From an uncultured Flavobacteriaceae bacterium (lineage in GTDB: Bacteria; Bacteroidota; Bacteroidia; Flavobacteriales; Flavobacteriaceae), in the NCBI GenBank assembly GCA_963734985.1, contig CAVTJB010000003.1, forward strand, positions 42,807 to 106,806: DNA of 64,000 nt. Direction: 5' to 3'. A program made the position numbers and the translations under genes. Positions within the stretch are counted from its first letter, which is position 1. Every line of letters starts with the position of its first letter. The notes beneath the pieces are model-generated. The model was not told the DNA's origin, searched no databases, and saw only the letters and a list, made by a program, of their open reading frames with translations. Shown here one piece after another: positions 23,219-59,427 of the stretch.

Positions 23219-23251
23219 AAAATAATTATGTATAGACATATAAACAAGTAT
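23219..23251. repeat. 33-bp direct repeat, copy 1 (contains operator ATGTATAGACAT)
   Basis: AAAATAATTATGTATAGACATATAAACAAGTAT, identical to 24975-25007. Confidence 0.95.
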
Positions 23252-23435
23252 AATTTAATCTCAATTGGGTTCAATACCCCTAGGTTTTCCTAGTAAGTTA
23301 GAGGAAAGTTTAACAACGGATAGTTTTCATCAATCAAAAAAATATGTTCCTCTAAATGCCTCCGTGGGCTTGCCCCGAACTTATTCTCTACGACCGAAAT
23401 TTATTTGGGTCTCTTTAGAATTGACCTTAAACTGA

Positions 23436-24737
23436 TTAGTATTTTATTTTACGGTCTGCCCATTCTTTGAACATCATACTGGATTTTGCCAGAACGCCAG
23501 CTGACCCTTTAAAATCTGCTGATCCAGCTGGTGTTCCATCTATTTTATACCATTCATAAAAACCATCATTTTTCAGTACTCTTTCAAACATGGGTTCTGC
23601 CAAGGTATAGGCTTCTTCAACAAAGTCATTGGCAATCAATTGTTGTATCATTCTTCCTCCAAACCAAGTCCAGTCTCGCCATTTTGGTATTCATACGAAG
23701 CGGAAACATTTTTACCCAAAACTTCAGTCGGATAGGGCGGATACAACGTTAGCCCAATGGATGGTGCTCCTGAAAACTTTACATTGTTTACCATATCAGG
23801 TCAAACGTGGGCTATTTCTTGCTTGCTAAGATACCGGCCTCAATCGCAACTGCCGTACCACCATGGTAGTGAATGGCAGTTTCATCAAAATCTTCTGGAA
23901 AAGGGGAGTCCTTCACATAGATGTGGGGAATAAATTGTTATTCTTCGCATCCATTAGATACTTTTTGCAATTAAGTTTTTATTTTTTCATAGAGATTATC
24001 CCACCTTTGTTTATCCTTGGTTTCAAGTGCAAATTCCTTCATGTTTTTCAAGGCTATGACGAACATTGCGTTGTCATAGATGTCTACTCTCCAGTGGGTA
24101 AGTTCATCAACATCGACTACCGCTCCACCTTCTACTTGCACATCCCCCCCAGTCAAAAGTGGTTGCCCCAATAATGAGGCCATAATCTTCTGAATATCTC
24201 TCCTTTAAGAGATATTCGATTGCCATTGTTAACCTTTCATATATTGTTTTTTCGGCTATTTTTTCATTTAATATGGAACGATTTTTGGTTTTGGCGATAT
24301 ATTTTGAGATTGCCTGGATCAAGGAGGGTTCCTGATCTGTTTCAACCGTATTCTTAAAGCCAATGTGGCCGCGTCGCAGATAGAGAGGTATAGGTGTTTG
24401 GATCTCGCCAAGTAAAGGCTTCTTTGGGGACATAACCATCTAATAGTTCTCCATTTTCTTGTTGAAAATGAAAGAACATTAATAAATTTTCACGAATAAT
24501 TTTTATATCATATTCTTCACAGGATAATTCTATAAAGGTATTCATATCACGTGACCAAACCATTTGATAACCAGAGCCGGCATAAAATCCGTTTTTCATT
24601 AATTTTCTAGCTCTATTCTCGACTTCCTGCATAGATTGATCAGACAATATTTTTTTTGCCAAATCTGATTTTTTGTCATCTTTAGAAATGCATGATACTA
24701 TAAGAAAACACAATATGGCAATACTAACTATTTTCAT
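23436..24737 (-). pseudogene. Six-hairpin (alpha/alpha)6 glycosidase-like lipoprotein, disrupted
   Basis: Lipobox LIVSC, YQMVWSRDMNTF, GATTFDWGD, YQNG.DWTWFG and GFYEWY spread over several frames. In-frame TGA at 23801-23803. Confidence 0.75.
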
Positions 24738-24974
24738 TTTGGAAGAATTAATCGTTCGAAACCAAAGCGCTTCTCTGATTGCCCAGTTTGAAGTCTTACG
24801 TTTGGAAGTCAAACCAGTCTTTGTCTCTTCATACGTTTTCATAAAATCAACCTTAGAAATTATATTTAATCTCTAAGGGTTTAATTCCCCGATGCTCTGC
24901 CTCGAAATTGAAAAATTGTTTCATATCATACCTCGTGTGTTTGCACCGAGGTCGTTGATTCAGATAAATATAAA

Positions 24975-25007
24975 AAAATAATTATGTATAGACATATAAA
25001 CAAGTAT
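24975..25007. repeat. 33-bp direct repeat, copy 2 (contains operator ATGTATAGACAT)
   Basis: Identical to 23219-23251; lies between the divergent glycosidase and DUF5005-like genes. Confidence 0.95.
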
Positions 25008-25039
25008 TTTTAACAGATATTGCTTAAATTACCCTAGCT

Positions 25040-26174
25040 ATGCAAGTCAAGTATTTGATATCAAAAATTTCAATATTGATTCTTTCATGTTTCATTTTTT
25101 CTTGCGCAAATGAAAAAAAGAAATCCCAATCGAAGCCTAAAGAGGAAATTGAAACGCGCACCGTTACCGCTGCCGCAAATTTCGAAGATTTGGTCATTGT
25201 CGATAGTCTGGGCGTCACCGGTGCCGATGGGGTAATTTCCTTTCCCTTGGATAGTACTACCTCCATTTTTATGATGGGCGATTCATTCCTAGCACCGGTT
25301 CGCCATAAAAAGAGAGATGTAGATAGCAAGATGATCAATAATACCTTCATCTTGATCAATAAAAATAAGCGCACCCATAAAGCCATATATAGAGGAACCA
25401 TTGAGAATGCCCACGCATTGCTGAAACCTGCTTATGACAATCCTCAAGAATATTATTGGCCAGGTGATGGATTTGAAAAGAACGGAACAATACATATTTT
25501 TATGTCCCGGTTTTTACATGATCACACGGCCTGGGGCTTTGAATTTTCAGGAACGGATTACATTCGAATGGATTCAAAAACATTTGAAATATCTTCGCAA
25601 GAGGACTTCCCCTATTCAAATAGGAACCAAGTGCATTATGGACATTCCGTACTTCATCAGGATGATTATACCTATATCTATGGGGCTTGGAGTACAAAAG
25701 ACTAATCCGCTCTTCATATAGCAAAAGCCACACTTAATCCCGATATCAAAAAACTGGAGCGATTTGAATTTTTCGATGGCAACCATTGGACTTCCGACCC
25801 GGTTAAGAGTGCTCCTTTGGGTGGAATCGAACAACAAATACCGGAACAGTTTTCGGTCTTTAAATATGGTGATTTATACGTTTTGCTTTTACAGGCGAGG
25901 GAACTGGGCAACGGAAATATCTTTTCCTACCTTTCAGATAGCCCGGCGGGGCCATGGCGCAACGAAAAATTACTTTATCATACCACCAAACAAGAAAATA
26001 TCGAGGATTAGTATTACCTACAACGCGATGGCCCATCCCCAATACATAAAAGATAACAAACTATTGGTTTCCTTCTGTGTGAATAGTTTTGAAGTATCGA
26101 AGATTCACGAGGTCAATACCGATTATTATCGCCCCAGGTTCATCTGGGTGCCTTTGGAAATGATTTTGGAGTAG
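25040..26174 (+). pseudogene. DUF5005/DUF4185-like beta-propeller lipoprotein, disrupted
   Basis: Lipobox IFSC, GADG...MGDSF, YYWPGDG, SPAGPW and TYNAMAHP. In-frame TAA at 25703-25705 plus frameshifts. Confidence 0.7.
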
Positions 26175-26185
26175 TTATTTGGTGA

Positions 26186-29100
26186 CTAATTTAGAAGTTT
26201 AAAAATTTTAGGATATGCATTGTTTACGCCCGCGAGTATAAATTGGTCCCCTTGCACACTTTTAAGACTATGGAGATTCCGTACCGCCCCTTTTAGGAAA
26301 AAACCGGAAATCTTTGGTTCAATTACCGAATATTTGCCATCTTTATTGCTAAGCAAAGTGATTCCATAATTGGCATCCAGCCTTCCAAATTGCGGTTTTA
26401 AATCAAAATCGTTTCCTGCCAACAAAATATCCAAAATTCCGTCCTTATTCAGGATATAATGTTTCGATGGCATGAATGCTGGAAAATTGGACCCTCGGCG
26501 GAAGGTCCAACACCTGAAATTCATTATTCCCATGATTATATGCAATCACACTTTTAAAAGTTGAAATATTTTTAACCACGGCACTATTCATAACTTTTTT
26601 TGAAAATAGTTTCTCCATCGATTTCGTTGCGTATTCTGTAGATTTTAAATTGTGTTTATTGAGAGAAGCAATTTCCTTGGTAAGTTCACGGCGAAGATGA
26701 ATGGGAACATCCTTTCCATTGATGGTTCGAGTGAAGTTTGCTCTATTGTACCATTTCCCGTCAAAATCACTTATAAAAACCTTGACCGGTCTATTTTCTT
26801 CCACGTTATAAAATGAATTTGTACCTCGGTTGCCAAGTACAAGGTTTAGGTACAGTTAATCATTGTTAAGATCGGCAATTCGGAGGGAATTCCAAGCTCC
26901 ATTGAGGGAATCCAGATTGCTTGCAATTCTTTTTGCAGTGATTCACCACTGTTCTTGTAGATTTTTGGCGCCTCCCAGTCGCCCACAATTATTAGATCTT
27001 TAATTTTATCCCCATCGATATCTGCCCATGCAGCCTCTGTGACCATCCCTGCTTGACTCAAATCAGCAGCTTTTGCTTTGGGTAACATCACTGTAACTAC
27101 CATTTCCGTCATTTTCAAGAAGTTTATGTTTAGGATTTTGACCCATACTTTCCCGGAACACTTCTACTCCCGATAGAAGAGGTCAATATCGCCATCTCCA
27201 TCATAATCGGCTGCAGCGACTCTAAGAGAAGTATCAGTATTGGAAACAGAGTTATTGGAAGGCAAGAACTTATTTTTTCCTGCGTTTTGATAAATCCGAA
27301 TCGGAAGATTATTTTTATCCTTAGAGGGTATATTTCCTCCGGAAACCACGACTAAATCTAGCATTCCATCGTTGTTGGTATCTTTGAACACAGCGTTTGT
27401 GTCTTCAAATACACTATCTTTTTCAATAGTGGGATTTGTAATAGGTTCGAATTTTCCTGAATCGGTCTGTATATAGATTCTACCGGCCTGATTTTTAGCC
27501 CCGCCCAGAAAGATATCCTCATTCCCGTCGCCGTTAATATCGCCAACAGCAATAGCCGGGCCTTCCCGGGATAGCATTTGCGATACCAAACCTTCATAAT
27601 CGTAATCGATATAATTATCTTCTTCATGCTTCTGAAGATTAATTTCAACGGATGTCATAAGGGTTTCAACTTTTCCCTTTTTACTGTTTGAAAATTTGTC
27701 GACAGGCATCCCGTTGATTAAGACCTCAAGTCCGGTCCACATCGATGTTCTTGATTGATTGGTACGACCCATCGGCCCATATAACCGCAAGGGAATCCAA
27801 TTTTTTTGTGTTTCCGAGACCGAAGGTCAAATTATAATCTACGGAAGACTGAAATCCCCGTGTGCGGATAGATTCCTTGACCAAAAATTGTATCCCCCTT
27901 GTACAATTTAATTTTACTGCCAATTCCAAATTTATTTTTACCGCTTCCCTCTAGTTTGATTTTGATAAAATGATTACTTTCTATTATCTCCGAATTATTT
28001 CTAATACAAATACTTCTTGATTCACATTATTTACCACCAAGTCCAAATCCCCATCATTATCTAAGTCTCCATCGAGGATCCATTAAAAAAACTCGGTTCG
28101 GCGAGACCCCAATCTTTGGTTTTATTGGAAAAAGTCAAATCCTGATTATTATGAAATGCGTAATTCGGAATGGGTGTTGAAGGCATTTTGTTAGTAAGTA
28201 CCTTTACTTGTGGCTCAGAATCAAAGGGCGTCTGGCGAAAGACGTTGTTCGCAAAGAAATCCATAAAATCATTATTGGTAATATCCCTATATATGCCATT
28301 GCTTACGTATAGGTCTTTAAACCCGTCATTATCCATGTCGAAAATAAGGGCGCCCCAGCTCCAATCGGTATATCCATCCCCAAAAATAAGCCGTTTCCGA
28401 AAAACTCCCATCTCCGTTATTTATTTGCAGGGTGTTCTGCATGTATTGGTTATAGAAATCCCGACCCTGTTTCAGTCTAAGAACATTATATGTTTCGAAT
28501 CCTCCGTTTTCTTTGAGCCTTTTATCCTCTTTAGGCCGCATGTCTGTGGCAAAAACTTCTGGAAGTCCGTCGTTGTTCAAATCTGCCATGTCCGACCCCA
28601 TGGAAGAAAAACTCAGATGCTGCATATAGCCTTCAATTTCTTCCTTAAAAGTGCCGTCTCCTTGGTTAACATATAAATAATCGCGTTCATAAAAATCATT
28701 TGAGACATAAATATCCGGAAGATTATCATTATTGACATCCCCTACGGTAACTCCCAATCCAAAACCAATTAAACTACCATATATTCCAGCTTCTTCACTA
28801 ACATCGACAAATTTATCATCATCATTGCGCAAAAGTTTGTCGCCACCGCCTTTTAGAACTTCCGGAACATTCCAATTTTCGCTTCTTAGATTTCGTTTGT
28901 TCACATAATTGAGGCTGCTTCCCGGAATGAAGCTATTGTTCAAGATATATACATCCAGATCCCCATCCCCATCATAATCAAAAAAAGCCGCATAGGTAAT
29001 GAAGCCATTCTCGTCCAAATTCTACTTTGGCCGCCGATTCGCTGAAGGTAAGGTCGCCAGTGATTAATAAAAAGTTCATTCTTTTTATCGGCATTACCGG

Positions 29101-29572
29101 CGTTGCAAACATAGATATCCAATAACCCGTCCGAATTTATATCGACCATGGCAACCCCCGTGGACCAAGACTTTGTTCCCCCCGTACCAGATACATTGGT
29201 GATGTCTTTAAACTCAAAATTTCCTTTATTCAAATAAAGTCTATTTTACTGATTTTTGGTTAGATAAATGTCGGGGAGGCCATCGTTATTGATATCACCG
29301 ATCCCAACACCACCACCATTATAAAAATTCCGATATTTAAAGATGTGAAAATCACCCTGAACATGAACGTCATTTGAAAATGCGATACCTGTTTGTTGTG
29401 AGTCAATTTTTGTAAACAGTGTTCCCGGAGCATTCTCTTTAGAACAGCAAAGCATTAAGGAGGCAAGTGTCATTGATGGCAAAAGTGTTCTTAATGAATT
29501 TAATCTCCATAAATTACATTTAGAAAAACGCTGGAATAATTCGTGAAATATGTCTTGCTTTATGAAACCCAT
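26186..29572 (-). pseudogene. FG-GAP/VCBS repeat + ASPIC/UnbV protein, many frameshifts
   Basis: FYNGGGVGIGDINNDGLPD, repeated DxDxDGxxD motifs, the ASPIC segment RGFQSSVD..LTFGLG and GRLDANYG, spread over at least 7 ORF pieces. Confidence 0.88.
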
Positions 29573-29592
29573 TATACGATTGTAAATAGTAA

Positions 29593-29626
29593 GACCACAG
29601 ATTTGTAGGAGTACAAACCTGTGGTC
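29593..29626. terminator. Stem-loop between susD and the ASPIC gene
   Basis: GACCACAG-ATTTGTA-GGAG-TACAAAC-CTGTGGTC inverted repeat. Confidence 0.6.
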
Positions 29627-29661
29627 AAATTTAAACTAAACAAACTAACTCAACTCTACTA

Positions 29662-31503
29662 TTAATATCCAGGGTTTTGTTCTATGCTATTATTGCTTCG
29701 CTGAACTTCTTCCCGAGGTATTGGAAACAGGTAGTAGTAATCCCCGGGCCATCGACTTCTCGGATCAACAGCAGTGATTTCCCCGTAAGTATAGTTTAAT
29801 TCACCTAACAGGTCCCCTTCTTTCGCATCGCTCCAGTCCATAGTTACCTCGGTAAGCCCTCTTATGGGGTTCAAGTCTATATTACCTGGAGCCGCTTTCC
29901 AACGCAAAAGGTCAAAAAATCGGGTATCCTCCAAATGCAATTCGACGGCCCTTTCATTTCTATAATCACGAATCAAATCTGCACCTGTACTAGTTATTTC
30001 CGGCATATTGACAGAAGGGCGTTGTCGAACGAGATTGATATATTGCCTTGCCACATCTTCATTGCCCAATGCAATTTGAATCTCTGCATAATTTAGGTAA
30101 AATTCTGCAAGTCTCATATAGACAGTCACCTGATTATAATCGTAGTCAAAACTGGCCCTTGGCCCAGAAAAATCTAATAATTTTCTAAAAGTATAACCCG
30201 TTTGCACCCGCCAGTGAAAAGGGGTTAGCCCTTTTATCCAATAGGTTTCTGAGTCCCGACCGAAGTCGAAGAGTTCTTGATTGTTAAGGGGATCTATTTT
30301 GTTAGGATTTTCATAGGGCCCTACGTTATCCGGGTTGGGATTGGCATCTTCCCAATACTCGTAAAGGCGGGTCGTACTTTTTGCCCCATCTATTATGGAT
30401 ACCGGTCCCGCACCTGGGTATATAATATAGCTGTAGTACCGGGGATCTGTCAAGGTTGGGATTTTGCGGGTCGTAGCCAGAAGCGGGGTTTACGGTAGTG
30501 CCATCTTCCAAATACGGATATTCCCCATTGGTCATTTCAAACATGTTTACAAAGGTCTGTGTCGGCATTACCCGTTGCCGTGCATCAAAACCGCTGGGCC
30601 AATAATCATAGTTATAGCCCCAATCGGGGATTCTAGAACCAGCAGTAAAGGTTCGGCCAAAAATAATCTCATCTGTTTTCAAAGGTTGAATGAACAAGTC
30701 TTCATGGGTATCGTGCAATGTAAAACCGGCGTCGATAACCGCTTTGGTCGCAACTTCGGCTGATTGCCATTTTTCCTGATCATTGGAAGGATTATTTAGG
30801 GGACTGGCCATATACAAGAGCATTCTTGCCTTTAATGCTGTTGCCGCTCTTTTGTCAATTTTACCCGCGGCTGGGGCGACACCATCCAATAAACCAATGG
30901 CCAGATCGCATTCGTTTACCACAAATTGCGCCACTTCATCAAAAGAATTTCTGGTTACATCGAAAGACTCTTCATTAAGTCCGAAGGTTCTTGTAATCAA
31001 GGGAACACCACCAAAATGCCGACTTAAATCGAAATACATCCAAGCTCTTATAAAATGCATCTCGCCTCTTGGGGATCTAATTCTTCTTTGCTTATTTCTG
31101 AATCCTCGATTTCTTCGAAGAATGTATTGACCCGTTTTATGTAATCGTACTGATAGTTCCAAATGTTCGTAACATCGGTGACATTATCAGAAGTCATATT
31201 TGCTGATAGGTACTCTCTGATGCCACCGGCCCTATCGTGTGTATCCGGAGCAATAGTGGCAATATCCGTCATGCCAATATAACCTCCAGTTCCCGGATTC
31301 CATGGCGGTCTGATACCATTGTAGGAATTATAGACATACCCTTGGAGGAAAACGGGGTCTGTAAATACGTTCGTCTCTGAAATGGCATCCAAGGGCTCTT
31401 TGTCTAATATGTCATTATTGCACGAAGTAGCTAAAAACATTACAGTCAGTATTGCGAAAGCTCTATGAATCATTACCGGTGTATTAAAAATTTGGTTTCT
31501 CAT
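29662..31503 (-). pseudogene. SusD/RagB family lipoprotein, frameshifted
   Basis: Lipobox LATSC, YFDLSRHFGGVPLIT, RLAEFYLNYAE, ERAVELHLEDTRFFDLLRW and the C-terminal QNPGY; three pieces. Confidence 0.92.
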
Positions 31504-42518: not shown

Positions 42519-42530
42519 GATTATGTTAAA

Positions 42531-46205: not shown

Positions 46206-49200
46206 ATGTTGAAAAAATACAGTTTGGTTTTGTTGCTTTCTATGGTGACCGTATTGGTTTTTGGCCAGAAACCCGTTTGGGAGATAGGCAAAGGGGATAA
46301 CAGTGCTTCTGAATTTACCTTGGCACCCTCGGACTACAGCAAGTTTCTCGCAAAGGACTTCGGATGGGAGGACCGATTTTTTGCTTTAGGCTTTTCTAAA
46401 CAGAAAAGGATTTTCCTTATGTTTTACCAGGTGCGGTGGACTATTGGGGAGGAACATCTGGCCTATCGGGAATCCGTCCGCATGAACTGAATCTTTTATT
46501 TTCATTGAAAGGGCAACTAGCTGCCGGCAACTGGCAATTGGTAATCGATATTTTGGACTGCAGCCCTGAAAATCCGCCACTCTTAAAGGTAACCGTAAAT
46601 GGGCACTCATGGAAATTCAGGTTGGACAAGGGTAGTAGTAACGAAGATGCACTAAAGGGTTCCGGTACCCGTTATAAAGAACAGAAACTGGAAATTCCGC
46701 TAGCTCCCGAGCTTCTAAAAAATGGGGGCAATGAAATACAATTGACGAGCCTTGAGGGCAGTTGGTTGGTCTTCGACCAGATCCAACTTAAGGGACCCGA
46801 AAATGTGGAGCTGTAACCCCAAATAAACTTTTTCTTCGCAATACCGAGGCGGCCGATTATGAAATTGATGTGGCCGGTAAACGTTTTCAACCTTTTTTGG
46901 TAGACGTTCAGTATTTGGAAGGCCTACCCAATCTTAGCGTAACCTTGGATGGCAAGAAGATTTTCAGGAAAAACGTGGCAAACGGCAGCCCGATTTTTGA
47001 GGTACCTATGGACGCCGTTACTGAAAATAGGCTTAGCGAATTTGAAGTATTGGTGGACAATGAACCTGTGAAAAAAGGCCAGGTTTTGCGGGCCCCACAA
47101 AAGCCGGTTTCCCTTTCGGATTACATAGACACAAAAATCGGGACAGGTCATTCACGGTGGATGATCGCACCTGGCCCGTGGATGCCGTTTGGCATGGTCA
47201 AAATCAGCCCCGATAATCAAGACAGCGGCTGGCAAGCGGGCTATCAACCAACCTTTGAAAATGTGGGCGCGTTCAGTCATATCCATGAATGGACGATGGC
47301 CGGCCTAGGTACCCTGCCGACAAACGGACTGTTAAAGACCAAAGTCGGAAAGCCTGAAAATCCGGATGGTGGTTATCGATCGAGGGTCAATAAGGTGACG
47401 AAAAAGCTCCTTTGGGATATTATTCCGTTGTTTTAAGCGATTACGATATAAAGACCGAACTTACAGCCACCACTCGTTGTAGCTTCCAACGCTACACTTA
47501 CCCCAAAAATGTGCCGCACTCTAGAATTCTGATCAACCTGAAAATACCTGCAGAATACGATTATCGCATCGAGAAGGCCTATATAGAAAAAGTGGGCTCG
47601 AATAAAATCGTGGGGTATAGCCGGCAGATTACCCCGTCGGTCTGGGGGGAACGGCATTATCGGAAACAAATGGTCGAGAACGGTGATGAATCGAAAGCGT
47701 GGGACGATATCGAACAGGATTACACCGTAAATTTTGTAATGGAGTTTGATAAGCCTATTAAGAAGTTCGGGATTTGGGTCGATGGAGAGAAAAAAGGTAC
47801 AAGCGATTCAATTTTGATAGAGAACCAGAACGGATTAACCATTGAAAAACCCGAGGATGTGGTTGTCTTCGCTGAGTTCGATACTACAGAAAACCAGGTA
47901 ATACAAACCAGAACGGGCTTATCTTATGTAAGTATAGATAATGCGGCGCTGAACTTAAAGACGGAGATTGGACAGCCTTTTGGTTGGGATTTTGAAAAAG
48001 TAAGGAAAAACCACGAAAAGGTCTGGAACGATCTATTGAAAAGAGTGCTGATTACCACTCAAGATAGAAAGGAAAAGACCCGCTTTTATTCCAATATGTA
48101 CCGCGCCATCGTAAGCCGGAATATTTTTAGCGATGTGGACGGAAACTGGATGGATGCTACCGAAAACCCCCAAAAATTCGAAGATGCCAATGGAGTGGCC
48201 CTAGGTTGCGACGCTTTTTGGAATACCTTTTGGAACCTGAACCAGTTTTGGAACCTGGCCGTTCCCGAACTGTCTTCTAAATGGGTCAATTCCCAATTGG
48301 CCATGTACGATGCGAACGGCTGGCTGGCCAAAGGGCCCGCAGGTATGGAGTATATCCCTGTGATGGTGGCCGAACATGAAATTCCATTGATTGTGGGTGC
48401 CTATCAAATGGGTGTTGACGATTTTGATGCCGAAAAGGCTTTCGAGGCAGTCCATAAAATGCAGACGGTTCATGGTGAGACCGTGGGCCATGGATACGCA
48501 GGAAACCGTGATTTGGAAGCTTATTTGAAATACAGCTACGTACCATACAATAAAGGAAGGTTTTCCAATACGTTGGAATATACTTTTGACGATTTCGCTG
48601 TATCCCAGATGGCCAAGGCCTTAGGCAAAAAGGATGTTTTTGAACAGTTTATCGACCGCGCCTACTGGTGGAAAAATGCCATAGACCCCACAATAGGTCT
48701 TGCAAGGCTCCGGCATTCGGACAGCTCTTGGTACAAAGAATTCGACCCACTGAAAACAGGGGGCAACCATCAATATGTAGAAGGGAACGCCTGGCAACTT
48801 TCCTTTTTTGTGCCTCAGGATGTTCCCGCCTTGGTTGAAATAATAGGAGAGAAACTGTTTGTGGATCGATTGGACGGAGGTTTTAAGGTTAGTAGCCCTT
48901 GGCGTTATAATGCTCCCAATGAACTCTATTGGGATTTTCCGGTGATACAGGGCAACCAACAGTCGATGCACTTTTCCTATTTGTTCAATTGGGCAAAACA
49001 TCCATGGCTAACCCAAAAATGGAACCGTGATATCATGGAGCGGTATTATGGTTTCGGGGTTTCGAACGCCTATCTCGGTGATGAGTATCAAGGCCAGATG
49101 AGCGCATGGTTCGTCATGTCGGCCTTGGGCCTTTTTCAGACTGACGGCGGAACCAGGGAAACACCCATATATGAGATTGGCAGCCCTATATTCGAAAAAA

Positions 49201-49433
49201 CGGTTATCGACCTAGGGAACATTTACGGAAGGGGAAGCACCTTCACAATCGAAGCAAAAAATGTGTCGTACCTTAACAAATACGTTCAGAATGCCAAATT
49301 GAACGGAAAAGAGCTTAGGAACTTTTGGTTCCCGGCTTCCGAACTGCTGCGGGGTGGTAAACTGGAACTGGTCATGGGGCCGGACCCGAATAAGAACTGG
49401 GGAGTAGGTACTATGCCGAAAAGCCCGAAATAA
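46206..49433 (+). pseudogene. GH92 alpha-mannosidase no.3 with N-terminal beta-sandwich module, frameshifted
   Basis: SRWMIAPGPWMPFGMVKISPDN, TLEYTFDDF, YVEGNAWQL and GDEYQGQMSAWF; frameshifts near 46400, 46815 and 47400. Confidence 0.9.
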
Positions 49434-49510
49434 ACCGACAACCAAATAAATTAAAACTCTTACGGTCAAAAAAATTGATACCCTTCTAGCACTAATTTTG
49501 TTGCTCGGAC

Positions 49511-49813
49511 ATGCCTCATTTCAGAAATGCAAAGCCTTGGCGAATGCCATCTAAAACAATCAGAATTTTTCCCAAGTCAAGAGAATGGCCAAGAAAGCGG
49601 AGAAGGCGGATTTTAATACCGGTGAGGGATGTAGAGAAGTTCCTGTCAAATAGGGGATTTTTACACGGCAGATGCCATTCGAATTTTAAAGAAGAACGGG
49701 TATGATGGGATACTAATTCCGAATCCCAGCCCTGCGATTATTTGCGACCCTCCTGGCACGCCAGCATAACTTATTCGATGGGTGATATGAAAATCTTGCT
49801 CGACACGGTATGA
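49511..49813 (+). pseudogene. uxuA: Remnant of D-mannonate dehydratase (UxuA/ManD), C-terminal part
   Basis: Hand translation: PHFRN...AIRILKKNGYDGILIPNP...CD/PSWHASITYSMGDMK. This resembles the UxuA C-terminus (HFRNV...GVLIPDHTP.MTC.A.WHAGMAY.LGY) as recalled, with the metal-binding PDH degraded. Confidence 0.65.
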
Positions 49814-50823
49814 CGAAAAATTGCAACATAAACGACAAATGGACCTATAACAATATGAGGGTCGTTTTTATGGAGAACGAATCCCGCAAGATTGGCATTC
49901 GAAGCAGGGCGTGGCAGCGACATTTTCCAAGTTCGTCTATAAGCCTGTCGGCATTGATCTCATGTTGCGATTGGACAAGGATATCCTAAATCCCCAAGAG
50001 GTATTTTCCCAACTGGTGATAAATACCAAAAACCAATTTAGGAGGATTACGATTATGGGGGATGGCAAGAGGTTTTGCCGAATAGCTCGCCACAAATTAT
50101 CACGGGGCAGAATTGGGGCAGCACGGAGAAGTTTCTTTGATTCCTTGGGATTATGCGGTTATTAAAAATTCGGACGCTGAGGTAGCGGTCAAATTATGGA
50201 CGCGGCCATTGCGTTATCCAATTTTAAATCGAAAAGACCTTGACCTTAGAAAAAGGAAGCCAGAGTTTGCAGATCGATGAAACTCTTACCAACGAATCGG
50301 AAACCGAGTTGCATATGATGTGGGGGCACCATATTGCCTTTGGTATGCCATTTTTGAAGGAAGGTGCTTGTATTGAAACCTCCGCGAAAAAATTCAGGGC
50401 GGAACAGGCGATGTGAGGCCATCGCATATTTAAGCCGGGAACTGAGCAAGATTGGCCGATAGTCGCAACCTTTGACAATCAAAAAATCGACGCAAGTAAG
50501 GTTTTGACTGCAACGGAAGGCAAATTTTCGGATTTGGCCTATTTGTCCAAGTTTAAGGAGAATGCATTTTATAGGATTGCCACAGATCGCATGTCTTTTA
50601 CGATAGCGTGGGACAAGGCAATTTTCAAATCTCTCTGGTATTGCAGGAACGATACGCTATCCAGGATGCCCCGTGGTGGGGCAAGACTTATGCTGTTGCC
50701 CGGCAACCATGGGCCAATGATTGGAAAGAGAACCCAACAGTGGAAAATATCGAAAAAGAATGGTTAAAACTGGAACCCAGACAGATTTTGGAAACGACGA
50801 TATCAACAACTTGTACACATTAG
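49810..50823 (+). pseudogene. Aldose 1-epimerase-like (DUF4432-type) protein, disrupted
   Basis: Pieces MENE..KIGI, YYGGWQEVLPN, LGQHGEVSLIPW, MWGHHIAFG and LWYC. In-frame TGA at 50414-50416 plus frameshifts. Confidence 0.72.
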
Positions 50824-50826
50824 CTT

Positions 50827-51693
50827 ATGAAAGCGGCAACTATTTTAGATATAAAGCCTGTTCACGGTGAAGCCTTATCGGGTGCCCCATCGAACAAAAA
50901 TTTTATTGTGTCGATTTGTTGAAAGGCTCCTACTTTAAGGTGGATTGGGCATCCAAAAAAGCCGAAGAATACAATGTAGGCCAAGAACTAGGCGTGATGG
51001 CATTACGCGAAAATGGTGGGATAGTGGCAGGAGTTCGCGATGGTTTGGATTTTATCATGAGCATACCAACGAACTACGGCTTATTGAAAATTCACCGAAC
51101 TACATGTCTCTGACCGACGTATGAACGACGGGGCGGTAGATCCGGCAGGAAGGTTTTTGGCTGGTACCATGGAGTATGACGGTGCCAACCATACTGGCAA
51201 TCTTTACCGTTTGAATCCGGACCACAGTATAGATCATCTTGAAAACAACATCTTTATTACCAACGGAATGGGCTGGAGCCCCGATAAGTGCACCTACTAT
51301 ATGATCGATACAAATAGAAATGTATGTTATGCCTACCATTACGATTTGGAAACAGGAAACATTTCCAATCGGAGAAAGCATATCAAATGGAAAAAAAATG
51401 AATATCCCGATGGCATGACGGTCGATTCGGATGGAGGTTTGTGGGTCGCCCTGTGGGGTGGGCATAAAGTAAGCCATTTCAATGCCGGTGGCACATGGAT
51501 CGAGGATATTGAAATTCCCGTGCTGCATGTGACGAGCTGTTGTTTCGGCGGCGAGGATTTGAAAACCCTTTTGGTAACTACTTCGCGCCTAAACCTATCG
51601 GAAAAGGAGCAGGAACAAAATCCATTGGCCGGAAGATGTTTTGCCATTGAAACGGATGCGATTGGACAAATAGAACCACGTTTTAAAGGATAA
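50827..51693 (+). pseudogene. SMP-30/gluconolactonase family protein, 5' frameshifted
   Basis: RMNDGAVDPAGR, ITNGMGWSPD, YPDGMTVDSDGGLWVA and VTSCCFGG. Confidence 0.88.
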
Positions 51694-51698
51694 CGAAA

Positions 51699-52450
51699 AT
51701 GAAGAAAAGAAATATAATAGTAACCGGAGGTGCAAAGGGAATCGGTAAGGCCTGTACCGAATATTTTTTGGAGAATGGCGACCATGTCATCGCCTTGGAT
51801 GTCGACCGGGACGCGTTGAAAAAACTTGAAAATCCACAAGGTAGGTTGCTTGGACTTGCCTGTGACGTTTCGAAATCGAAAGAAGTCGAGCAGGCCATTC
51901 AAAAAGGGATAGACAGGTTCGGAGAAATCGATATACTTGTCAACAATGCGGGAATCCAAAGGTATTCGACGGTCACGGAAACCTCCGAGGAAGAGTGGGA
52001 TCTGGTCATGAACGTCAATTTAAAAAGTGCTTTTCTTTGTGCAAAGTATGCGGTGCAATCGATGCAAAAAAAGGGAAAGGGTGTAGTAATTAATGTGTCT
52101 AGCGTTCAGGCCTTTGTCAGTCAGGAACGGGTGGCGCCCTATACCACCTCGAAAACGGCTATGTTGGGATTAACAAGAAGTATTGCCGTTGATTATGCCC
52201 CGAATATAAGATGCGTTGCAGTGTGTCCAGGAACGGTGGATACCCCCATGTTACGTGATGCCATAGCCACCATGGATAATCCTGAAGCCGTATATCAGGA
52301 ATGTATCGATATGCATTTGAGCAAACGTATCTGTCCGCCCGAAGAGGTGGCGGCCCTCGTCGGGTTTCTAAGCAGCGATATGGCAGGTCTATTACGGGAC
52401 AGGCCTTTCGGGTCGATGGAGGATTGGGGATTCTTTGTGAAGGAAATTAA
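51699..52450 (+). pseudogene. SDR oxidoreductase resembling archaeal aldohexose (mannose) dehydrogenase AldT; frameshift near the C-terminus
   Basis: TGGAKGIG, VNNAGIQRY, NVSSVQA, YTTSK, SIAVDYAPNIRCVAVCPGTVDTP. The natural end ITGQAFRVDGGLGILCEGN* is in another frame after about 52389. Confidence 0.85.
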
Positions 52451-52520
52451 GGCCACGGCCCCATGCATTTCCCTTACCGTTAAATTGCGTTTCTTCGGAT
52501 GGGAGAAGGGGAGGGGAGTT

Positions 52521-54487
52521 TCAAAATGCATGGGATCGTAAAAATACTTTTCCTTGGCCGTACCCAATTCAAAATCATCCGTTCGGAATGGAAAAGCAGG
52601 CAACCCATCCGTATTGTATAAATTTAAGGCTCCGGGATTATCGGACCAAGCATAGCGCACGAATTTAGGGTCGGAAACCTGATTGGAATACACGGTCACC
52701 TCATCGGCACCAGACAGTTCTGCTTTCGCCCAAACGAATTTCCCATCTTCGCCGGCAATGGCAAAACCTCTCAGATAACCGAATTTATCGGTGCTTTTGA
52801 GAGTGCTCCCGTAGGTATCGAACTTGATTTTAATCGTATTCCCATCCACCGACTGACTTTTATAGGTCGGCGCCTTGTGTAAAGGCTTCCCATATTCATC
52901 GTGCAGGGCCAAAAGCGAGAGCCGTCTTCCTACTTCCAATTTGTTGTAGGGATGGATGTCGTTTGCATTCCCGATATCGATGGCCGTCATAATATCAACA
53001 TTCGGCAGCTGCGTAGCTTTCATTTGCGAGTTACGGACTTCGGCCCATTTACTGTTTCCGGGGATGGAATCTTCTTGTCTATAATTGGCCAACTGCACTA
53101 TATAAAATGGCATGTCGGGATCCTTCCACTTTTTGCGCCAATCGGTGATCATGCCCTTTAACAGGGATTCATATTCGACCGCCCTCTTTTCGTTCGATTC
53201 CCCTTGGTACCAAATTACGCCGGTAATGGGAAGACCTAGTAAAGGAGCGATGCCCCCGTTGTACAACAACATCGGGTGCGAAAATACACTGCCGTTCGGC
53301 ACCTTTGGTTTCGGGAATTTTTTTGCATCTATGGATCTTCCTTTTTTATATTTCCATTGTCCGACCAAGATGGGGTTGCCCCAAAAGGCATTGGTATAGA
53401 TTCCGCCTTTGCCACCGGAATCAAAAACGCGGACGGTGAGGGTATTGTCTTTTGCCAGTAAAATCTCCTTGGGTACGGTGTAGTTCCTGAAGTTGCTATT
53501 GCCAAAGGTTTCTCCCACCTTTTGGCCGTTGACCCATGTGATGTCATAGTCATCGATTTGATTTAAGGCCAAAGGGAAATCCTTGTCGAGTCGGGTGGAA
53601 TCGAGGTCGAACGTCTTACGGAACCAAAAACTACCGTCGTGGTCGGCATAGCCAAAATCTTCCCAGAAGGAGGGAAGCGTAATTTCCTGCCAATCGGAGT
53701 CATCGTAATCATCGGTATACCACTTTTCTTCGAGTCCGGGCCCTTTTAGGTATTGCCTGTCCCATTTCTTACGGTACTTTTCAAATTCCCTGTTCAAGGT
53801 CGCAAAATCCTTTTTGGTTTTTTCGATGTTGGAGGTGACTTCATCAAATTGGGGGAATTTTTTCAGGGCATCCATACTCATCCACGTTTCGATGGTGGTC
53901 GCCCCCAGGTTACTGCTGATTAATCCGATCGGAACCTCCTGGTTTTCGGCCAATTCCCTTCCAAAAAAATATCCGACGGCACTAAAGTTCCGAACGGTCT
54001 CCGCATTCGCCTCTGCCCAAATGGCCATGGAAACTTCGTCCTGTGGAAGATAATCGGATGCGATTCCTATCGAGCATAAACGCAGGTTGGGATATGCGAT
54101 GCGACTTGTATCCTTTTCCACATAGTCCAACATGTTCAAGGTATATTGCATGTTCGATTGGCCCGCGCAGAGCCATAGGTCGCCGACCAGAATATTCTCC
54201 AAGTTCAGCTCCTCCTTGCCTTTGAACGATAAGGTGAAGGGCCCGCCATAGTCCATTGGTTCAAGAACTACTTTCCAGTTTCCCTTCTTATCGGCTGTTT
54301 CCGAATGCAATTGATCGCCAATGGAGATCTGTAGGGTTTCCATGGGTGCGGCCGTCCCTTCTATGGGAATAGATTTGTTTCTGGGCAACACCATATTGGA
54401 CGCGAATATTTTGGGGAGTTCTATCTGCCCGAGTACCAAATTGTGCGGTATAAAGGCGAATAGGAAAATGACCAAAAATTTCTTCAT
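52521..54487 (-). CDS. Sialate O-acetylesterase (SASA)-family esterase with inserted beta-sandwich
   Basis: GDLWLCAGQSNM, VIWYQGESN, DIHPYNK and VRYAW. The probable natural stop is at 52521; the ORF reads on to 52295 through a terminal frameshift. Confidence 0.88.
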
Positions 54488-54494
54488 TGTAATT

Positions 54495-55851
54495 TCAGTT
54501 TAATTCTTCATCGGCCGTCCAGCTCAGTTCAATTTCCTCCAAGGTTTTTCCTTTAGTTTCCGGGATTACGTTATAGGTGAAAATCAATAGGATAATCGCA
54601 TTGGCCATAAAGAGCCAAAAGGTGTATGCGCCGCCGATTTTATCCAGAAGCACGGGAGTGAACTGGGATATAAACCAGACCCCTACCCACAGTACCATAA
54701 TCGATAACGACATGGCAATGCCCCGGGTCTTGGTCGGAAATATTTCCGAGATCAATACCCATGGGATCGGACCCAAGGAGGTTGCAAAGCATCCGACGAA
54801 ACCTAAAATAAAGATCAATACCCAAGGCCCAGTGGTCAATCCGAGATAAAACAGGGTGCCGACCGCCAATAAACAGATCGCCATTCCGGAAACTCCCCAT
54901 AACAACAAAGTCCTACGGCCCAGCTGATCGATGTATTTTATGGCAACGAACGTGAAAATAGTGTTGATGACCCCAATGATCACGGTCTGCATCAAGGCGG
55001 AATCTACCCCGAAACCGGCTCCTTTTAAAATTTCAGGGGCATAGTACATGATAGCGTTGATCCCGGTAATCTGGGAAAAAAGCGCAAGTACGATCCCGAT
55101 AATCATGGCGATACGGAGCCCGGGAGCGAAAAGTTCTTTGAGCGTTCCCTTTTCTTGCCCTAGCGTCAGCTTGATTTCGTTATGCACCTTTTTTGCCAAC
55201 TCATCGGAATTTACCCTGCCCAAAATATCGAGCGCTTCGTCGTGTCTGCCCACTTTGGATAGCCATCTAGGACTTTCCGGTACAAAAAACAACGCAATGA
55301 GGAACAAAACCGCGGGAACTGTTTCGGAGCCCAACATATAACGCCATCCCATTTCAATGTTCCACTGTTCCCCATACATTCCCGCAATGATATAATTAAG
55401 GAAGAACACAATGTTGATGCCCACTACAATGGCCAGTTGATACAGCGAGACTAACATGCCCCGCTTGTTCGCGGGAGCGATTTCGGAAATGTACAAAGGC
55501 GACAACATCGAAGCCGCCCCGACCCCAACACCGCCTATCATCCTCGCTATTACCAATTGGTTGAATGTTTCCGCCAAGGCACAGCCAATGGCCGAAATGG
55601 CAACAAAAAGGCGGTAATGATCAGTGTTTTCTTTCTTCCATTTTATCGGCAACATAACCGGCGACGGCGACCCCTCCGATACACCCCAAAATGGCGCAGG
55701 AAACGGCCCACCCTTTCAGGTCTGGGCTCAAGGAAAATTTGGTTTCCATAAAACCGATCGCCCCGGATATTACAGCGGTGTCATACCCGAACAGTAATCC
55801 GCCCAAGGCACCGATGATTGTTATTAACAATAAATACCTTGATTTTTTCAT
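54495..55851 (-). pseudogene. Sugar porter family MFS transporter, frameshifted near the 5' end
   Basis: GGLLFGYDTAVISGA, YISEIAP, PESPRWL, QITGINAIMYY and PETKGKTLEEI. Confidence 0.92.
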
Positions 55852-55931
55852 GTTGTTTTGGTTTGGTTCATTGAACTCGAAGCGAGTCCATTTCCTAAAA
55901 ACCCAAGCTTCATGCGATACGTTGATGAATA

Positions 55932-58748
55932 TTATAAAATCTTTAATCCCCGACCCTTCATTGTGGAACAGGTTGGGGAATGTTCACTCCTTGCCCCAAT
56001 TTTTATTGGGTTCGAACCAAGAACAATTTCCAATTTGCCTCCTTTTTCATAGTCCTTCTGGGAAAACCAATACGTTTCCAGAGCTTTGTTATTTAATTTG
56101 GCACTATGGATATATCTGTTTTCTTCGGAGTTGTTGTCCGTGGTAATCCTAAACTCCCAGCCCGATAGTATTTGTTGTCCAAAGAAATAACGATCTCATC
56201 AAAAACGGGACTTGTTAATTCATATCTCGGTTCCAACGAGTTGGTTCCTGTGAGACTGAATAAACCCAATGACATTAGGGCACTTACCCCACCCATCTGA
56301 CCTTGGTCTTCATCATGCCCACCATACCCTTTGTCAATACTAGTAGCCCCGTAAGCCTGTTCATTGACCTTTCGAACCCAATATTGGGTCAGCCATGGTT
56401 TGCCTGCATGATTGAAAACATGTGCATTGGAACAGCCCGGTTGATTGGCATAGCTTACATAACCGCTACCATAACCAAAGACAAAATCTTCGGCATCCGC
56501 TTGTTCAAAAGCATAGTTCAATTTGTTGCAAAGCACATCATTGCCTCCCATTAATTTGGCAAGCTCATGGATACCATGGGAAACGGACCATGTTCCCTGC
56601 CAAGAATTTGCCTCGACCCACCCGCTGTTACTTGAGGGGTCGTCATGGGTCCATTTACCGTTCGCGTCTTTTGGAAAAATCAAGTTTTGTGAAGGTTTGA
56701 ATAAGTTCTTCCATCCTTCTGATCTATTTAAAAAATAGTTGTAGTCCTTGTGCTTCCCCAATTTTTTGGCCATTTGGGACAAGGACGAGTCCTGGAACGT
56801 CCATTCTATGGTTTTCCCAGCGTTACCCGGGCACCAGCCGTGGTCGATATAAAATTGAAGTTCTTCCGGGGTGTCGCCAATCATCCGCCCGGCATATGGT
56901 TTTGTTTCATTTCTTTAAAGGCCTGGTGCGGGTCGACCTTGGTCATCAAATCTTTCATGTACGTGCTCGCGATCATATTCGTCGCCGGGCAGCCTGTCAT
57001 AATATAGGAATATCCACCGGCGATAGCTCCCCGAGGGAGAAGACCGCCATTTTTTGAATATTGCACCAAAGAAGCAGAAAAATCGTCCAAGATTTCAGGC
57101 CATGCTAGTCCCCATAGAATATTGAGGTTCCATTGGGTAAGCCATAAGGCATCAAAATTGTACATATTGAACTTGGCATTGCCATCGGCGTCCATAGGAA
57201 GTTTCCGTACCTTTAGGTTCGCTTTTGTGAAATTGGCATAGCGCTCGCCTTGGGTGTAGTCTGGATAATCACCACTTACATCGTTCAAAATTCGTCTTCC
57301 CAATAACACATGCCAAAGATCGGTGTAGAATTTTACTGTTTGATCGTGTGTACCGCCTTTTACCTTGATTTTGCCCAGTTTGTCGTTCCAAACGGACAAC
57401 GATTTGTTCTTATATGCTTCAAAATTCCAATCGGGTGCTTCGGCTTCCAAATTCTTTCTAGCATTTACGATAGAGGTATACGATATGGAAATTTTCATTT
57501 GTATTTCATCGCCGGCCTCGACATCGTATTGGGCGGAAACACCGGTTGTTGGGGCATTCCAATAACTCTGTGTCAAACTGGGGAAGACAATGGAGTCACG
57601 TCGTGTCATTTCGGTCGTTCCCTTGAGGTTTTCGATGTTCGATAGAATTTCGTTCTCGTTCCAACCATTAAAGGCTTTGAATGGTTTATCAAATTTCGCG
57701 ACAAAAAATATCTTTACATTTTCTGGACCGCCCCAAAATCTTCCGGACAAATCAAAGTAACCTTCAAATGCGGTTTGGCCTACCTTTCGAACATCGGCAT
57801 TGATCATCGTCGAATTCCCCAGATAACCCCCCAAGTTGGTCAGGATATTGGCTTCCGCTTTTTCGGTAAAGTTAAAACGATAGAACGTAGTTCTTTCCGT
57901 ACTGGTATAGTCGACCCACATATGATAGTCCTCGAGATAGACCCGCTGATAGCCGGGGATGGCAATCTCGTCATCATGACTAAAGCTCGATTTCCAAGCT
58001 GCGGCACCATGGGTGGATCAACCTCGCCTGTTGTTGGCATTACCTGAATACCCGATAGGCACCAACCATGAATCTGTTCAAAGCCCAGTATTTCGGTTGA
58101 ATTGTAGTTATAACCGCCCCCGTATTGGTTCTTGTTCCGGGTTATCGGTGCTGCGGCCACCATGCCCATGGGCCTAGCACCAGGGGTAAAGAAAAAGTAC
58201 CTGCCCTTGGCAGATTCTATGAAGGGGTCTACCCAAGTAAGTGGGGCATCATCCTGACCACGTGCGGCAAAGACCTCGATTTCGGAAAGGCCCATTCCCA
58301 ATCCCTCTCCATCGGTGACATCAAAACGCACCCATTCCACTTCCTTGGCGGGAAAGGTAACCATTTTTGGGGAACCGTCATTTGGAATGGCGGTCACCGA
58401 AATTTTACTGCCATCGCTAAAAACCAGGGTGCCACTACCGATTTGGGTTTGGACGCCGGGGCGATCGTACAAGGTAATTTTCTCGATGGATCGCTTTATA
58501 GGCCATTCCAGTTTTATCCAAGGCAATTCAAAAAAACCCCAAGCCCTGTGATCACCCTGACTTGCCCATTCCCCCAATCCCTGTATGCGGATTATTCCAT
58601 CCGTTATATTGGATACAGGATGTTCTGATTGTTCCGTAGATGCACTTATTTTTGCTTGCGGCGCTATATTTTGGGACACAACAAAGATCGAACCCGCAAG
58701 GCAGAATAAAACGGTGAAAATAATTTTTATATGTTTTCCTATCATCAT
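55932..58748 (-). pseudogene. GH92 alpha-mannosidase no.4 with N-terminal discoidin (F5/8C)-like module, frameshifted
   Basis: RYFFFTPGARPMG, FYTDLWHVLLGR, WVEANSWQ and GHDEDQGQMGG; three main pieces. The 3' end is approximate. Confidence 0.88.
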
Positions 58749-58822
58749 ATTTAGCGGGATTTGGTGTTAGGCTTTAATGTCATGTTACCGCTTTGGAATC
58801 GGCAATACTTTATTATATGGTC

Positions 58823-59059
58823 CTAAACGGCATAGGGTTTGGCAACCTTAACTGAACAACATAATCTCAAATTTTCTTTTATGGGCGAATTACATCCCTT
58901 GTTTCCATGCGATGGACCAATAGCGGCCCGACAACCATCGATCACCAAACTCTGTCCCGTGGTATGTCGGGCGTCTCTCGAAACCATAAACAGAACCGCA
59001 TGTGTGATATCTTTGACTGAGGCGTGCCACATAGGGGTCAGGCTTTCCCATATTTCCAT
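58823..59059 (-). pseudogene. C-terminal remnant of an SDR oxidoreductase
   Basis: DITHAVLFMVSRDARHTTGQSLVIDG, a typical SDR C-terminus; there is no N-terminal Rossmann motif. Confidence 0.6.
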
Positions 59060-59301
59060 TCAATGACCCAGATTTAAATACTCCGATTGATTAGCTTTCC
59101 GAGGTTAGAAGGAGTGAATCATAAATACTAGCGGCAACAACAAAATTAACCAGATACCTTTTGGTCGAAATCAATTTGCTTTTATTAGTTGTAGAATAGT
59201 CCATTGCATAAATAATAAAAACAAGTCGCTCATAAAATAATATCCTCAATATATCCCCCAAAATAGGATTTCTATACCAAAAGTACGAATATAATGTTTA
59301 T

Positions 59302-59313
59302 ATGTTTACACAT
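59302..59313. promoter_or_regulatory. Putative GntR/HutC operator ATGTTTACACAT
   Basis: TATGTTTACACATA is the exact reverse complement of the 14-mer at 37841-37854. It lies upstream of the minus-strand SDR-remnant / GH92 no.4 / MFS / esterase unit. Confidence 0.75.
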
Positions 59314-59427
59314 AAGGTGGTTTGTCTACAATTTTATTAAATTATCAGACGGAATTTTGGGCCGACATCTCCAAAAAGGGGGTTTTATTTTAAAGTTGAG
59401 GAGAACTTCAAGTTGCCATTTGTAGAT

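Follow-up and report, generated by a model that had tools for sequence, protein, structure and literature searches.

Six copies of one palindrome, ATGTNTANACAT, lie in a 64-kb stretch of the 4.52 Mb genome of an uncultured Flavobacteriaceae bacterium (C3:42807-106806; hereafter the window, whose positions are used below), at 23228, 24984, 37842, 42531, 46104 and 59302. They raise the question whether they are the operators of the one intact HutC-subfamily GntR regulator encoded among them, and whether the DUF1553/DUF1501/cytochrome c genes behind one of them, which belong to an orphan family, share a regulon with genes for alpha-mannosidases. A reading made earlier from the letters of this DNA (the sequence-only reading) had proposed both. 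Taking all parts together, we consider it probable that the island's HutC/UTRA GntR repressor has its operators in the six sites, that these define a mannoside regulon and that in one sub-clade this regulon extends to a DUF1553 promoter.

The operator motif and its candidate regulator

A motif search of the window returned all six copies with the coordinates and sequences that the sequence-only reading had given. Six occurrences of ATGTnTAnACAT compare with 0.03 expected in the window, and none of 100 dinucleotide-preserving shuffles of the window reached six; the count for the whole genome (4,518,591 bp, 11 contigs) is again six, every copy being inside the window. When the genome was scanned with a position weight matrix (PWM) built from 28 sites, all from other genomes, the six window sites ranked first to sixth (24.5-30.9, with a maximum possible score of 35.2) and the best match elsewhere scored 16.8. 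The objection that such a motif might be common in AT-rich intergenic DNA, raised with the original proposal, is therefore excluded by the whole-genome motif and PWM scans.

Each palindrome carries a third half-site on one flank, so that the full site has three parts, ATGTnTAnACAT-n4-ACA[T/A], and since palindrome, 4-nt spacer and third half-site recur at every copy, the operator is about 21 nt long (consensus TATGTTTAAACATATGAACAT). The third half-site reads ACAT at four sites and ACAA at 23228 and 24984. The latter two copies are contained in an exact 33-nt duplication (23219-23251 = 24975-25007), and outside this duplication the similarity among the sites is limited to the 21-nt core. Every copy is intergenic and upstream of the unit that had been named for it; the sites, a degenerate relative and the regulator gene are as follows.

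23227..23247, plus strand (palindrome at 23228): operator 1, TATGTATAGACATATAAACAA, PWM score 27.1, part of the left-hand copy of the 33-nt duplication, 103 bp 5' of the DUF1553 start
24983..25003, plus strand (palindrome at 24984): operator 2, the same 21 nt as operator 1, PWM score 27.1, in the divergent region between the glycosidase-like ('six-hairpin') and DUF4185-like pseudogenes
37834..37854, minus strand (palindrome at 37842): operator 3, PWM score 24.5, 5' of GH92 no. 1, then the SusC, SusD and FG-GAP/ASPIC genes
42523..42543, minus strand (palindrome at 42531): operator 4, PWM score 26.8, between the regulator stop codon and GH92 no. 2, adjoining the likely ATG
42703..43446, minus strand: HutC-subfamily GntR regulator (winged helix-turn-helix plus UTRA), intact, the only orthologue in the genome
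45404..45424, minus strand: degenerate operator, ATTGTTCATACAAATAAACAT, PWM score 12.9, about 45 bp 5' of the gene for a mannose-6-phosphate isomerase-like (PMI-like) protein, third half-site intact
46103..46123, plus strand (palindrome at 46104): operator 5, PWM score 25.8, 5' of the gene with a carbohydrate-binding module (CBM) and GH92 no. 3
59294..59314, minus strand (palindrome at 59302): operator 6, PWM score 30.9, 5' of the DUF7402-GH92 no. 4/MFS/SASA esterase unit, with an IS5 fragment directly on its other side

Two weaker sites had also been proposed. The one at 45412 is, by orthology, a degenerate form of the site that other genomes conserve best. It has three mismatches in the palindrome, is the sole degenerate operator of the set and stands ahead of the regulator's own operon (PMI-like plus HutC). 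The half-site at 43551 was not borne out, as it has no PWM match and chance gives a 7-mer several times per window. A rule by which the third half-site points to the regulated gene was likewise rejected, since it fails in Snuella sedimenti, where minus-oriented sites stand ahead of plus-strand genes.

The canonical Bacteroidetes -7 box has the consensus TAnnTTTG, and such boxes lie 7-20 nt 3' of the sites; a protein bound to the sites would therefore cover the -33/spacer region, which is the geometry of a repressor. The candidate for this protein, 247 aa long, combines an N-terminal GntR winged helix (PF00392, E 1.7e-17, residues 17-79) with a C-terminal UTRA domain (PF07702, E 2.1e-24, residues 101-237); its closest solved structures in a PDB sequence search are YvoA/NagR and DasR, and its NCBIfam scores lie far under every equivalog cut-off. 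No other transcription factor is encoded in the locus, and the HutC protein is also the sole one conserved across homologous loci. HutC operators are palindromes with GT and AC 4 nt apart and the consensus NyGTMTAKACNy (PMC4494728). All six sites read GT-nTAn-AC, with the M and K positions of the HutC type variable; the palindrome thus has the GT-N4-AC architecture and the TA centre, and the third half-site comes on top of it. Judged by this architecture and by the co-occurrence of motif and regulator, the intact GntR/UTRA protein is the most likely binder, in agreement with the sequence-only reading.

The co-occurrence was followed through 52 loci with relatives of the regulator (855 kb in total; Flavobacteriaceae, Saprospiraceae, Cytophagales and one Victivallales genome), which hold 29 exact palindromes and 67 PWM matches above 15. 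The conserved gene order in these loci is site, PMI-like gene, CBM-GH92 gene, glycosidase-like gene, regulator, (GH92) and ROK kinase gene, and almost every locus in which the PMI-like gene is present has a site 55-65 bp 5' of it. The exceptions are Algoriphagus loci, with an exact site on the regulator's contig in one genome (G229) and elsewhere in two others (G230 and G231). At the Victivallales locus, whose regulator is 45% identical, the site lies 38 bp 5' of the regulator gene. An even sample of 200 other Flavobacteriaceae genera contained regulator orthologues (at least 68% identity) in five, to which the present genome is added; two or more matches to the strict three-part pattern were found in 5/6 genera with the regulator versus 2/195 without it, and the rate in genomes without the regulator equals that of a reversed-pattern control. 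The motif is over-represented, restricted to promoters and kept at orthologous positions where the regulator is present. By these comparisons part of the Flavobacteriaceae, and the Cytophagales, share the predicted regulon. Among 401 genomes of the phylum, a second HutC palindrome, CTTGTATATACAAG, said to precede GH92-SusCD genes and a PSD1/DUF1501 trio, gave three single matches and no multi-site genome.

From the geometry and the conservation we infer a switch in which the HutC repressor would sit over or just 5' of the -33/spacer region and block transcription until released by a mannose-derived effector; mannose-6-phosphate is a plausible candidate because a ROK kinase and a PMI-like enzyme are encoded in the core operon. 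The regulon would amount to an alpha-mannoside utilisation island with four GH92 genes, SusC/D, an MFS transporter, an esterase, the PMI-like enzyme, the ROK kinase and the regulator itself. The assignment to mannose and alpha-mannosides, already made in the sequence-only reading, fits the four GH92, PMI-like, ROK, MFS and SusC/D genes found here, and the part of the interpretation that joins regulator, operator and mannose is, as a prediction from sequence comparison, well supported.

The DUF1553/DUF1501 unit behind operator 1

The gene start 103 bp from operator 1 belongs to the following unit.

16408..23125, minus strand: four-gene unit, all frames open, GC content 0.53-0.60 versus 0.46 for the genome

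Its first gene encodes a PSCyt1-DUF1549-DUF1553 protein (809 aa; PF07635, PF07583 and PF07587; CxxCH at residues 56 and 352) and is followed by genes for a Tat-signal DUF1501 protein (487 aa; PF07394; RR motif NRRHFF), an FA_hydroxylase-type membrane protein (333 aa) and a membrane cytochrome c-LRR protein (476 aa). The order of a PSCyt1+DUF1549+DUF1553 protein and then a Tat-signal DUF1501 protein is that of the PSCyt/DUF1549/DUF1553 and DUF1501 gene pairs of Planctomycetes and Verrucomicrobia, a family whose function He et al. gave as not known while suspecting a carbohydrate-related role (PMC3542564, PMC5615132). Domain set and conserved pairing are the same in both; here, however, the host belongs to the Flavobacteriaceae, the pair is joined by the cytochrome c-LRR gene (and by the FA_hydroxylase gene in this genus), and in several genera it stands behind an identifiable operator that is predicted to respond to a sugar. 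PDB sequence searches with the DUF1553 and DUF1501 proteins gave no significant match, and a literature search found no functional study of DUF1553/DUF1501. That DUF1501 might be a formylglycine sulfatase was considered and rejected, as its 487 aa contain no C/S-x-P/A-x-R motif and the sole arylsulfatase match has an E value of 0.13.

The proposal that this unit belongs to the mannoside regulon stands in part: an operator and a -7 box face such a unit in five genomes, and members of three paralogous lineages occur in the island or next to it, but none of 16 sampled orthologous units in other genera has an operator. The arrangement in which one site separates a DUF4185-like gene from a divergent unit of the kind found in the window (type A) is present in the window, the L014 genome, Arenibacter hampyeongensis, an Arenibacter metagenome-assembled genome (MAG) and a Sediminicola MAG, that is, in four genera, with the same ACAA third half-site in every case; the island's DUF1553 gene is the only one in the genome of the Sediminicola MAG. 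In the window, L014, both Arenibacter genomes and Snuella sedimenti, the palindrome is followed at 9-20 nt by a -7 box directed at the unit. Elsewhere, paralogous units (type B, with about 52% identity for DUF1553 and 63% for DUF1501) lie in or beside the island: that of Snuella sedimenti is behind a site scoring 34.1 of the possible 35.2, that of A. palladensis is 3' of a DUF7402-GH92 gene with a predicted operator, and that of S. lapsa is inside a ROK...GH92 gene string. In Aestuariivivens insulae such a paralogous unit follows a weak site close to a GH92 gene. Three lineages of the DUF1501 tree, type A, B1 and B2, are represented in the island or next to it, and the type A sequences linked to the island are not gathered in one clade. 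Among the six regulator-bearing genera of the even sample, three have a unit behind an operator, two do not and one is not resolvable.

Arenibacter hampyeongensis (L106, L002 and L107; C1:1.088-1.131 Mb) carries DUF1553-type units on both flanks of its mannoside island, with a type B2 trio and a lone type A DUF1553 gene just 5' of the PMI-like operon on the left, and the operator-linked type A trio on the right; its two DUF1553 genes of type A share 83% nucleotide identity.

Several observations weigh against including the unit in the regulon, and one of them, the degeneracy in this strain of the operator ahead of the regulator's own operon, against the interpretation as a whole. In other genera, 16/16 type A orthologous units (three genes, 68-82% protein identity) have no PWM match above 15 and no mannose gene within 10 kb, and the regulator is absent from 6/8 tested genomes with an orthologous unit. 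A genome of the window's own genus (G106) has the unit and no regulator. The window unit has a twin on C1 that stands, with no operator, among YceI, FGE-sulfatase-like, GFO/IDH/MocA and SDR genes, and the third half-site of the divergent sites is oriented toward the DUF4185-like gene, not toward the DUF1553 unit. Genes for YceI, SDR, FAA-hydrolase, 2-keto-3-deoxy-galactonokinase (DGOK) and MauG-like peroxidase neighbour the units that have no mannose link, a hint of oxidative sugar-acid metabolism. All of these points but the degenerate operator speak for an explanation in which the HutC regulon is real and the DUF1553/DUF1501 unit is a passive neighbour, there by inherited island architecture and unrelated to mannoside use. 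We regard that explanation as rather unlikely, since members of three paralogous lineages lie in or beside the island across genera, some of them inside co-directional GH92 operons, since in five genomes the palindrome is followed at once by a canonical -7 box directed at the unit, and since the Sediminicola MAG has its only DUF1553 gene in the island and two genomes keep an island copy beside a second one.

Because the 16 orthologues are unlinked, G106 has no regulator and the twin no operator, the unit is not mannose-specific in general. Our own reading is that it has been recruited repeatedly into the HutC regulon, that co-regulation is likely where the unit sits behind an operator, and that the link is recurrent and, where present, likely to be real, but not universal. 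In a sub-clade made up of the window's genus, Arenibacter, Sediminicola and one uncultured genus, the regulon would include a promoter that faces the DUF1553-DUF1501-cytochrome c/LRR unit and has its operator in common with the divergent DUF4185-like gene. With each of its four GH92 genes broken, this strain cannot bear out literally the further claim that the unit is co-induced with alpha-mannosidases.

The window unit and its twin (16424-23076 versus C1:798333-804988 of the same genome, G000) are 98.2% identical at the nucleotide level, in a tract that starts about 17 codons into the DUF1553 gene and ends 16 nt before the stop codon of the last gene. Mismatches are patchy (none in 1.5 kb, 29 in another 500 nt) and mainly synonymous (57 codons versus 24). 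In the L014 genome the island copy (13631-18840) and a second copy 340 kb away (L108 7581-12791) are 99.66% identical over 5.2 kb, the identity beginning at the DUF1553 start codon and the upstream regions being unrelated. Copies within a genome are sisters in the DUF1501 tree (100/100). This looks like two differently regulated copies under concerted evolution, in which the coding region of the island unit would be homogenised with its operator-less second copy by gene conversion, and such concerted evolution would explain the GC-rich block (0.53-0.60) in an AT-rich island. In a synteny comparison aimed at which copy is native, the type A locus of G106 and the C1 locus match in only the four genes, which favours neither copy. 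Each copy has one lesion: in the island copy a 1-nt indel near the DUF1553 stop codon (within 20696-20780) extends the product from some 785 aa to 809 aa, and in the C1 copy a 1-nt indel (within C1:798314-799748) splits the cytochrome c-LRR gene.

The 33-nt duplication at operators 1 and 2 brackets the glycosidase-like gene. That it marks a recent capture of the GC-rich unit into the regulon was rejected as the main explanation, since the same arrangement with ACAA occurs in three other genera that have no duplication. In Arenibacter the glycosidase-like gene lies elsewhere in the island, and the duplication therefore reflects the relocation of this gene into the divergent promoter region.

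As a wider and tentative idea, the DUF1553-DUF1501-cytochrome c/LRR trio could be a periplasmic haem-linked sugar-catabolism module that is plugged into various regulons, acting in the marine Flavobacteriaceae clade on a mannose- or mannoside-derived substrate under the HutC repressor; some genomes would keep two copies, with gene-converted coding regions and distinct promoters. If so, Arenibacter and Snuella would be the first systems with a defined inducer and a tractable phenotype for a family abundant in Planctomycetes and Verrucomicrobia. Several culturable species have this orphan family behind an operator whose specificity can be predicted, which gives it a testable sugar context from which a first physiological setting could be obtained.

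A YceI-like gene of about 180 aa lies 5' of the type A unit, confirmed by Pfam, on C1 of this genome (L053 10159-10701) and in L085; L086, L088, L090 and L092 have an ORF there that is similar by size and position only, and the island-linked copies have no YceI-like gene. The NHL-like propeller gene of the window (37983-39087) has a 77% homologue directly 5' of a type A unit with no mannose link (L099 10154-11278) and a 45% homologue inside a type B unit (L109 3960-4541), and its product could belong to the DUF1553 system as a fourth partner.

Gene content and decay of the island

The remaining features of the island and its edges are listed by position; the gene assignments that the sequence-only reading had made behind the sites proved correct by Pfam, NCBIfam and PDB searches and by comparison with intact orthologues.

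15785..15858, plus strand: tRNA gene at the left island edge (Rfam scan)
23439..24737, minus strand: glycosidase-like gene (class not assigned), pseudogene in five frame pieces with at least four frameshifts (compared with its orthologue)
25034..26177, plus strand: DUF4185-like lipoprotein gene, pseudogene with an in-frame stop and a frameshift (compared with intact orthologue)
26189..29635, minus strand: FG-GAP/ASPIC (UnbV) gene, heavily fragmented into many pieces (compared with its orthologue)
29665..31503, minus strand: SusD-like gene, pseudogene with two frameshifts; the intact orthologue matches SusD_RagB PF07980
31513..34537, minus strand: SusC/RagA-type TonB-dependent transporter gene (TIGR04056, 579 bits), one frameshift near the N-terminus
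35508..37807, minus strand: GH92 no. 1, pseudogene in about six frame pieces (open reading frame (ORF) map and profile search)
37983..39087, minus strand: Tat-signal NHL-like beta-propeller gene, pseudogene with one frameshift (compared with intact orthologue)
39222..40139, minus strand: ROK-family sugar kinase gene with no HTH, intact (profile search)
40153..42485, minus strand: GH92 no. 2, pseudogene with at least one frameshift (compared with intact orthologue)
43591..45357, minus strand: PMI-like gene (588 aa), intact; the C-terminal 300 residues resemble class I mannose-6-phosphate isomerase (1qwr, E 2.9e-16)
46206..49430, plus strand: CBM-like plus GH92 no. 3, pseudogene with three frameshifts (orthologue of 1076 aa)
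49479..52541, plus strand: eroded genes after GH92 no. 3, unidentifiable fragments and then SMP-30 and SDR genes
51088-51690, plus strand: truncated SMP-30/gluconolactonase gene (profile search)
51699-52541, plus strand: SDR aldose-dehydrogenase-like gene, intact (profile search)
52295..58733, minus strand: operator 6 unit of DUF7402-GH92 no. 4 (two frameshifts), MFS sugar transporter (one frameshift) and SASA esterase (730 aa, open)
59326..61583, strand not given: IS5-family transposase fragment and split IS21-like transposase at the right island edge (profile searches)

Adjacent SusC-like and SusD-like genes together with GH92 genes identify the island as a polysaccharide utilisation locus (PUL), in which both susC and susD are frameshifted in this strain. 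One label was retained in a weaker form: the gene at 23439-24737, called 'six-hairpin' in the sequence-only reading, is kept as glycosidase-like by way of description, since even its intact orthologue has no Pfam match and no PDB match. Operator 6 is about 550 bp from GH92 no. 4, and the intervening stretch at 58750-59290 reads, by eye from its translation, as a probable C-terminal SDR remnant (...TGQSLVIDG...). The roughly 1 kb between GH92 no. 1 and SusC (34540-35500) has no recognisable coding frame and no Rfam match; in the window as a whole the Rfam scan found the one tRNA and no other RNA element.

Comparison with intact orthologues shows all four GH92 genes, SusC/D and the MFS gene to be frameshifted, so that the regulon is for the most part dead in this strain; the genes that are open in the island are those of the four-gene DUF1553 unit and those for the regulator, the PMI-like protein, the ROK kinase, the esterase and the SDR. 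The damage is local, with at least 20 disruptions in about 36 kb versus none in the adjacent 23 kb, where the first 23 kb of the window hold 13 genes, all open. Because this flank is open, long-ORF coverage is normal genome-wide and the frameshift junctions are not at long homopolymers, we read the frameshifted genes as real pseudogenes. Two other causes do not fit: alternative genetic codes (table 4, TAG=Q, TAA=Q) open none of the fragmented frames, and homopolymer sequencing errors were rejected since long runs do not coincide with the junctions and the disruptions are clustered. A reading in which the frameshifts are indel errors of assembly or sequencing and the living strain has a working island finds some footing in the completeness estimate of this genome (92.4% versus about 99% for most relatives) and in a MacB-like ABC permease gene beyond the island (62517-63999), which also looks frameshifted; we think it improbable given the concentration of the disruptions, the ORF coverage and the position of the junctions, and given that the island also contains in-frame stops, unrecognisable eroded stretches, gene remnants and insertion sequence fragments. 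The MacB-like gene is split into two overlapping frames, so that decay of genes, or error, also reaches beyond the island.

On the left, G106 is syntenic with the window up to the tRNA gene and shares nothing to the right of it; since synteny stops there, the island looks like an accessory insertion. It appears to be decaying, with nearly all glycan-degrading and transport genes frameshifted, and with operators, regulator, kinase, isomerase and DUF1553 unit remaining. The strain would thus present an accessory island in decay in which regulatory DNA and cytoplasmic mannose genes outlast every outer-membrane and glycosidase gene.

Relation to known HutC systems

HutC/UTRA repressors such as NagR and DasR are relieved of repression by a phosphorylated sugar. 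The regulator studied here shares with NagR/YvoA of Bacillus subtilis and DasR of Streptomyces the GntR winged helix-turn-helix plus UTRA make-up, these being its best PDB sequence matches, an operator palindrome of the tGTnTAnACa type seen in their dre sites, and a position in or beside the sugar-catabolic genes under its (here predicted) control. It differs in that the regulon is one of alpha-mannosides and mannose (GH92, PMI-like, ROK, SusC/D) where theirs is one of N-acetylglucosamine, in the third half-site, which is added to the palindrome as a direct repeat at a distance of 4 nt, and in its Bacteroidota host with -33/-7 promoters. MngR (FarR) of Escherichia coli is a HutC-subfamily repressor of a locus with an alpha-mannosidase gene; it controls a phosphotransferase system and a GH38 enzyme for mannosyl-glycerate, whereas the present locus is a PUL-type island. 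FarR is listed as a HutC member that recognises the direct repeats TGTATTAWTT in a comparative study of GntR motifs, which covers one Bacteroidetes HutC regulator (PMC4494728). AusR is described as a GntR-family repressor of the alginate system of Zobellia galactanivorans (PMC7641319), and so, like the regulator predicted here, as a GntR-family protein over polysaccharide utilisation genes in a marine flavobacterium; substrate and regulon differ.

Among the top-ranked matches listed by a literature search, titles and abstract openings included no paper describing this regulon. GntR control of PULs in marine Flavobacteriaceae seems little described, AusR being a characterised example. The predicted regulon is a new one of the well-known HutC kind, distinct by its third half-site, its alpha-mannoside PUL content and its Bacteroidota promoter context, and with its clean operator of 21 nt, its defined regulator and its compactness it would offer a ready model for alpha-mannan/mannose switching. 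An alternative in which some regulator besides the HutC protein binds the motif, or in which the motif is a dispersed repeat and no operator, can draw on the exact 33-nt duplication that holds two of the six copies and on the fact that the HutC assignment comes from sequence, but is very improbable, since the copies have only the 21-nt core in common outside the duplication, the sites stand at orthologous promoter positions across genera and phyla, the HutC protein is the only transcription factor conserved in the loci, the motif has the GT-N4-AC architecture of HutC operators, and where the regulator is absent the motif is absent too.

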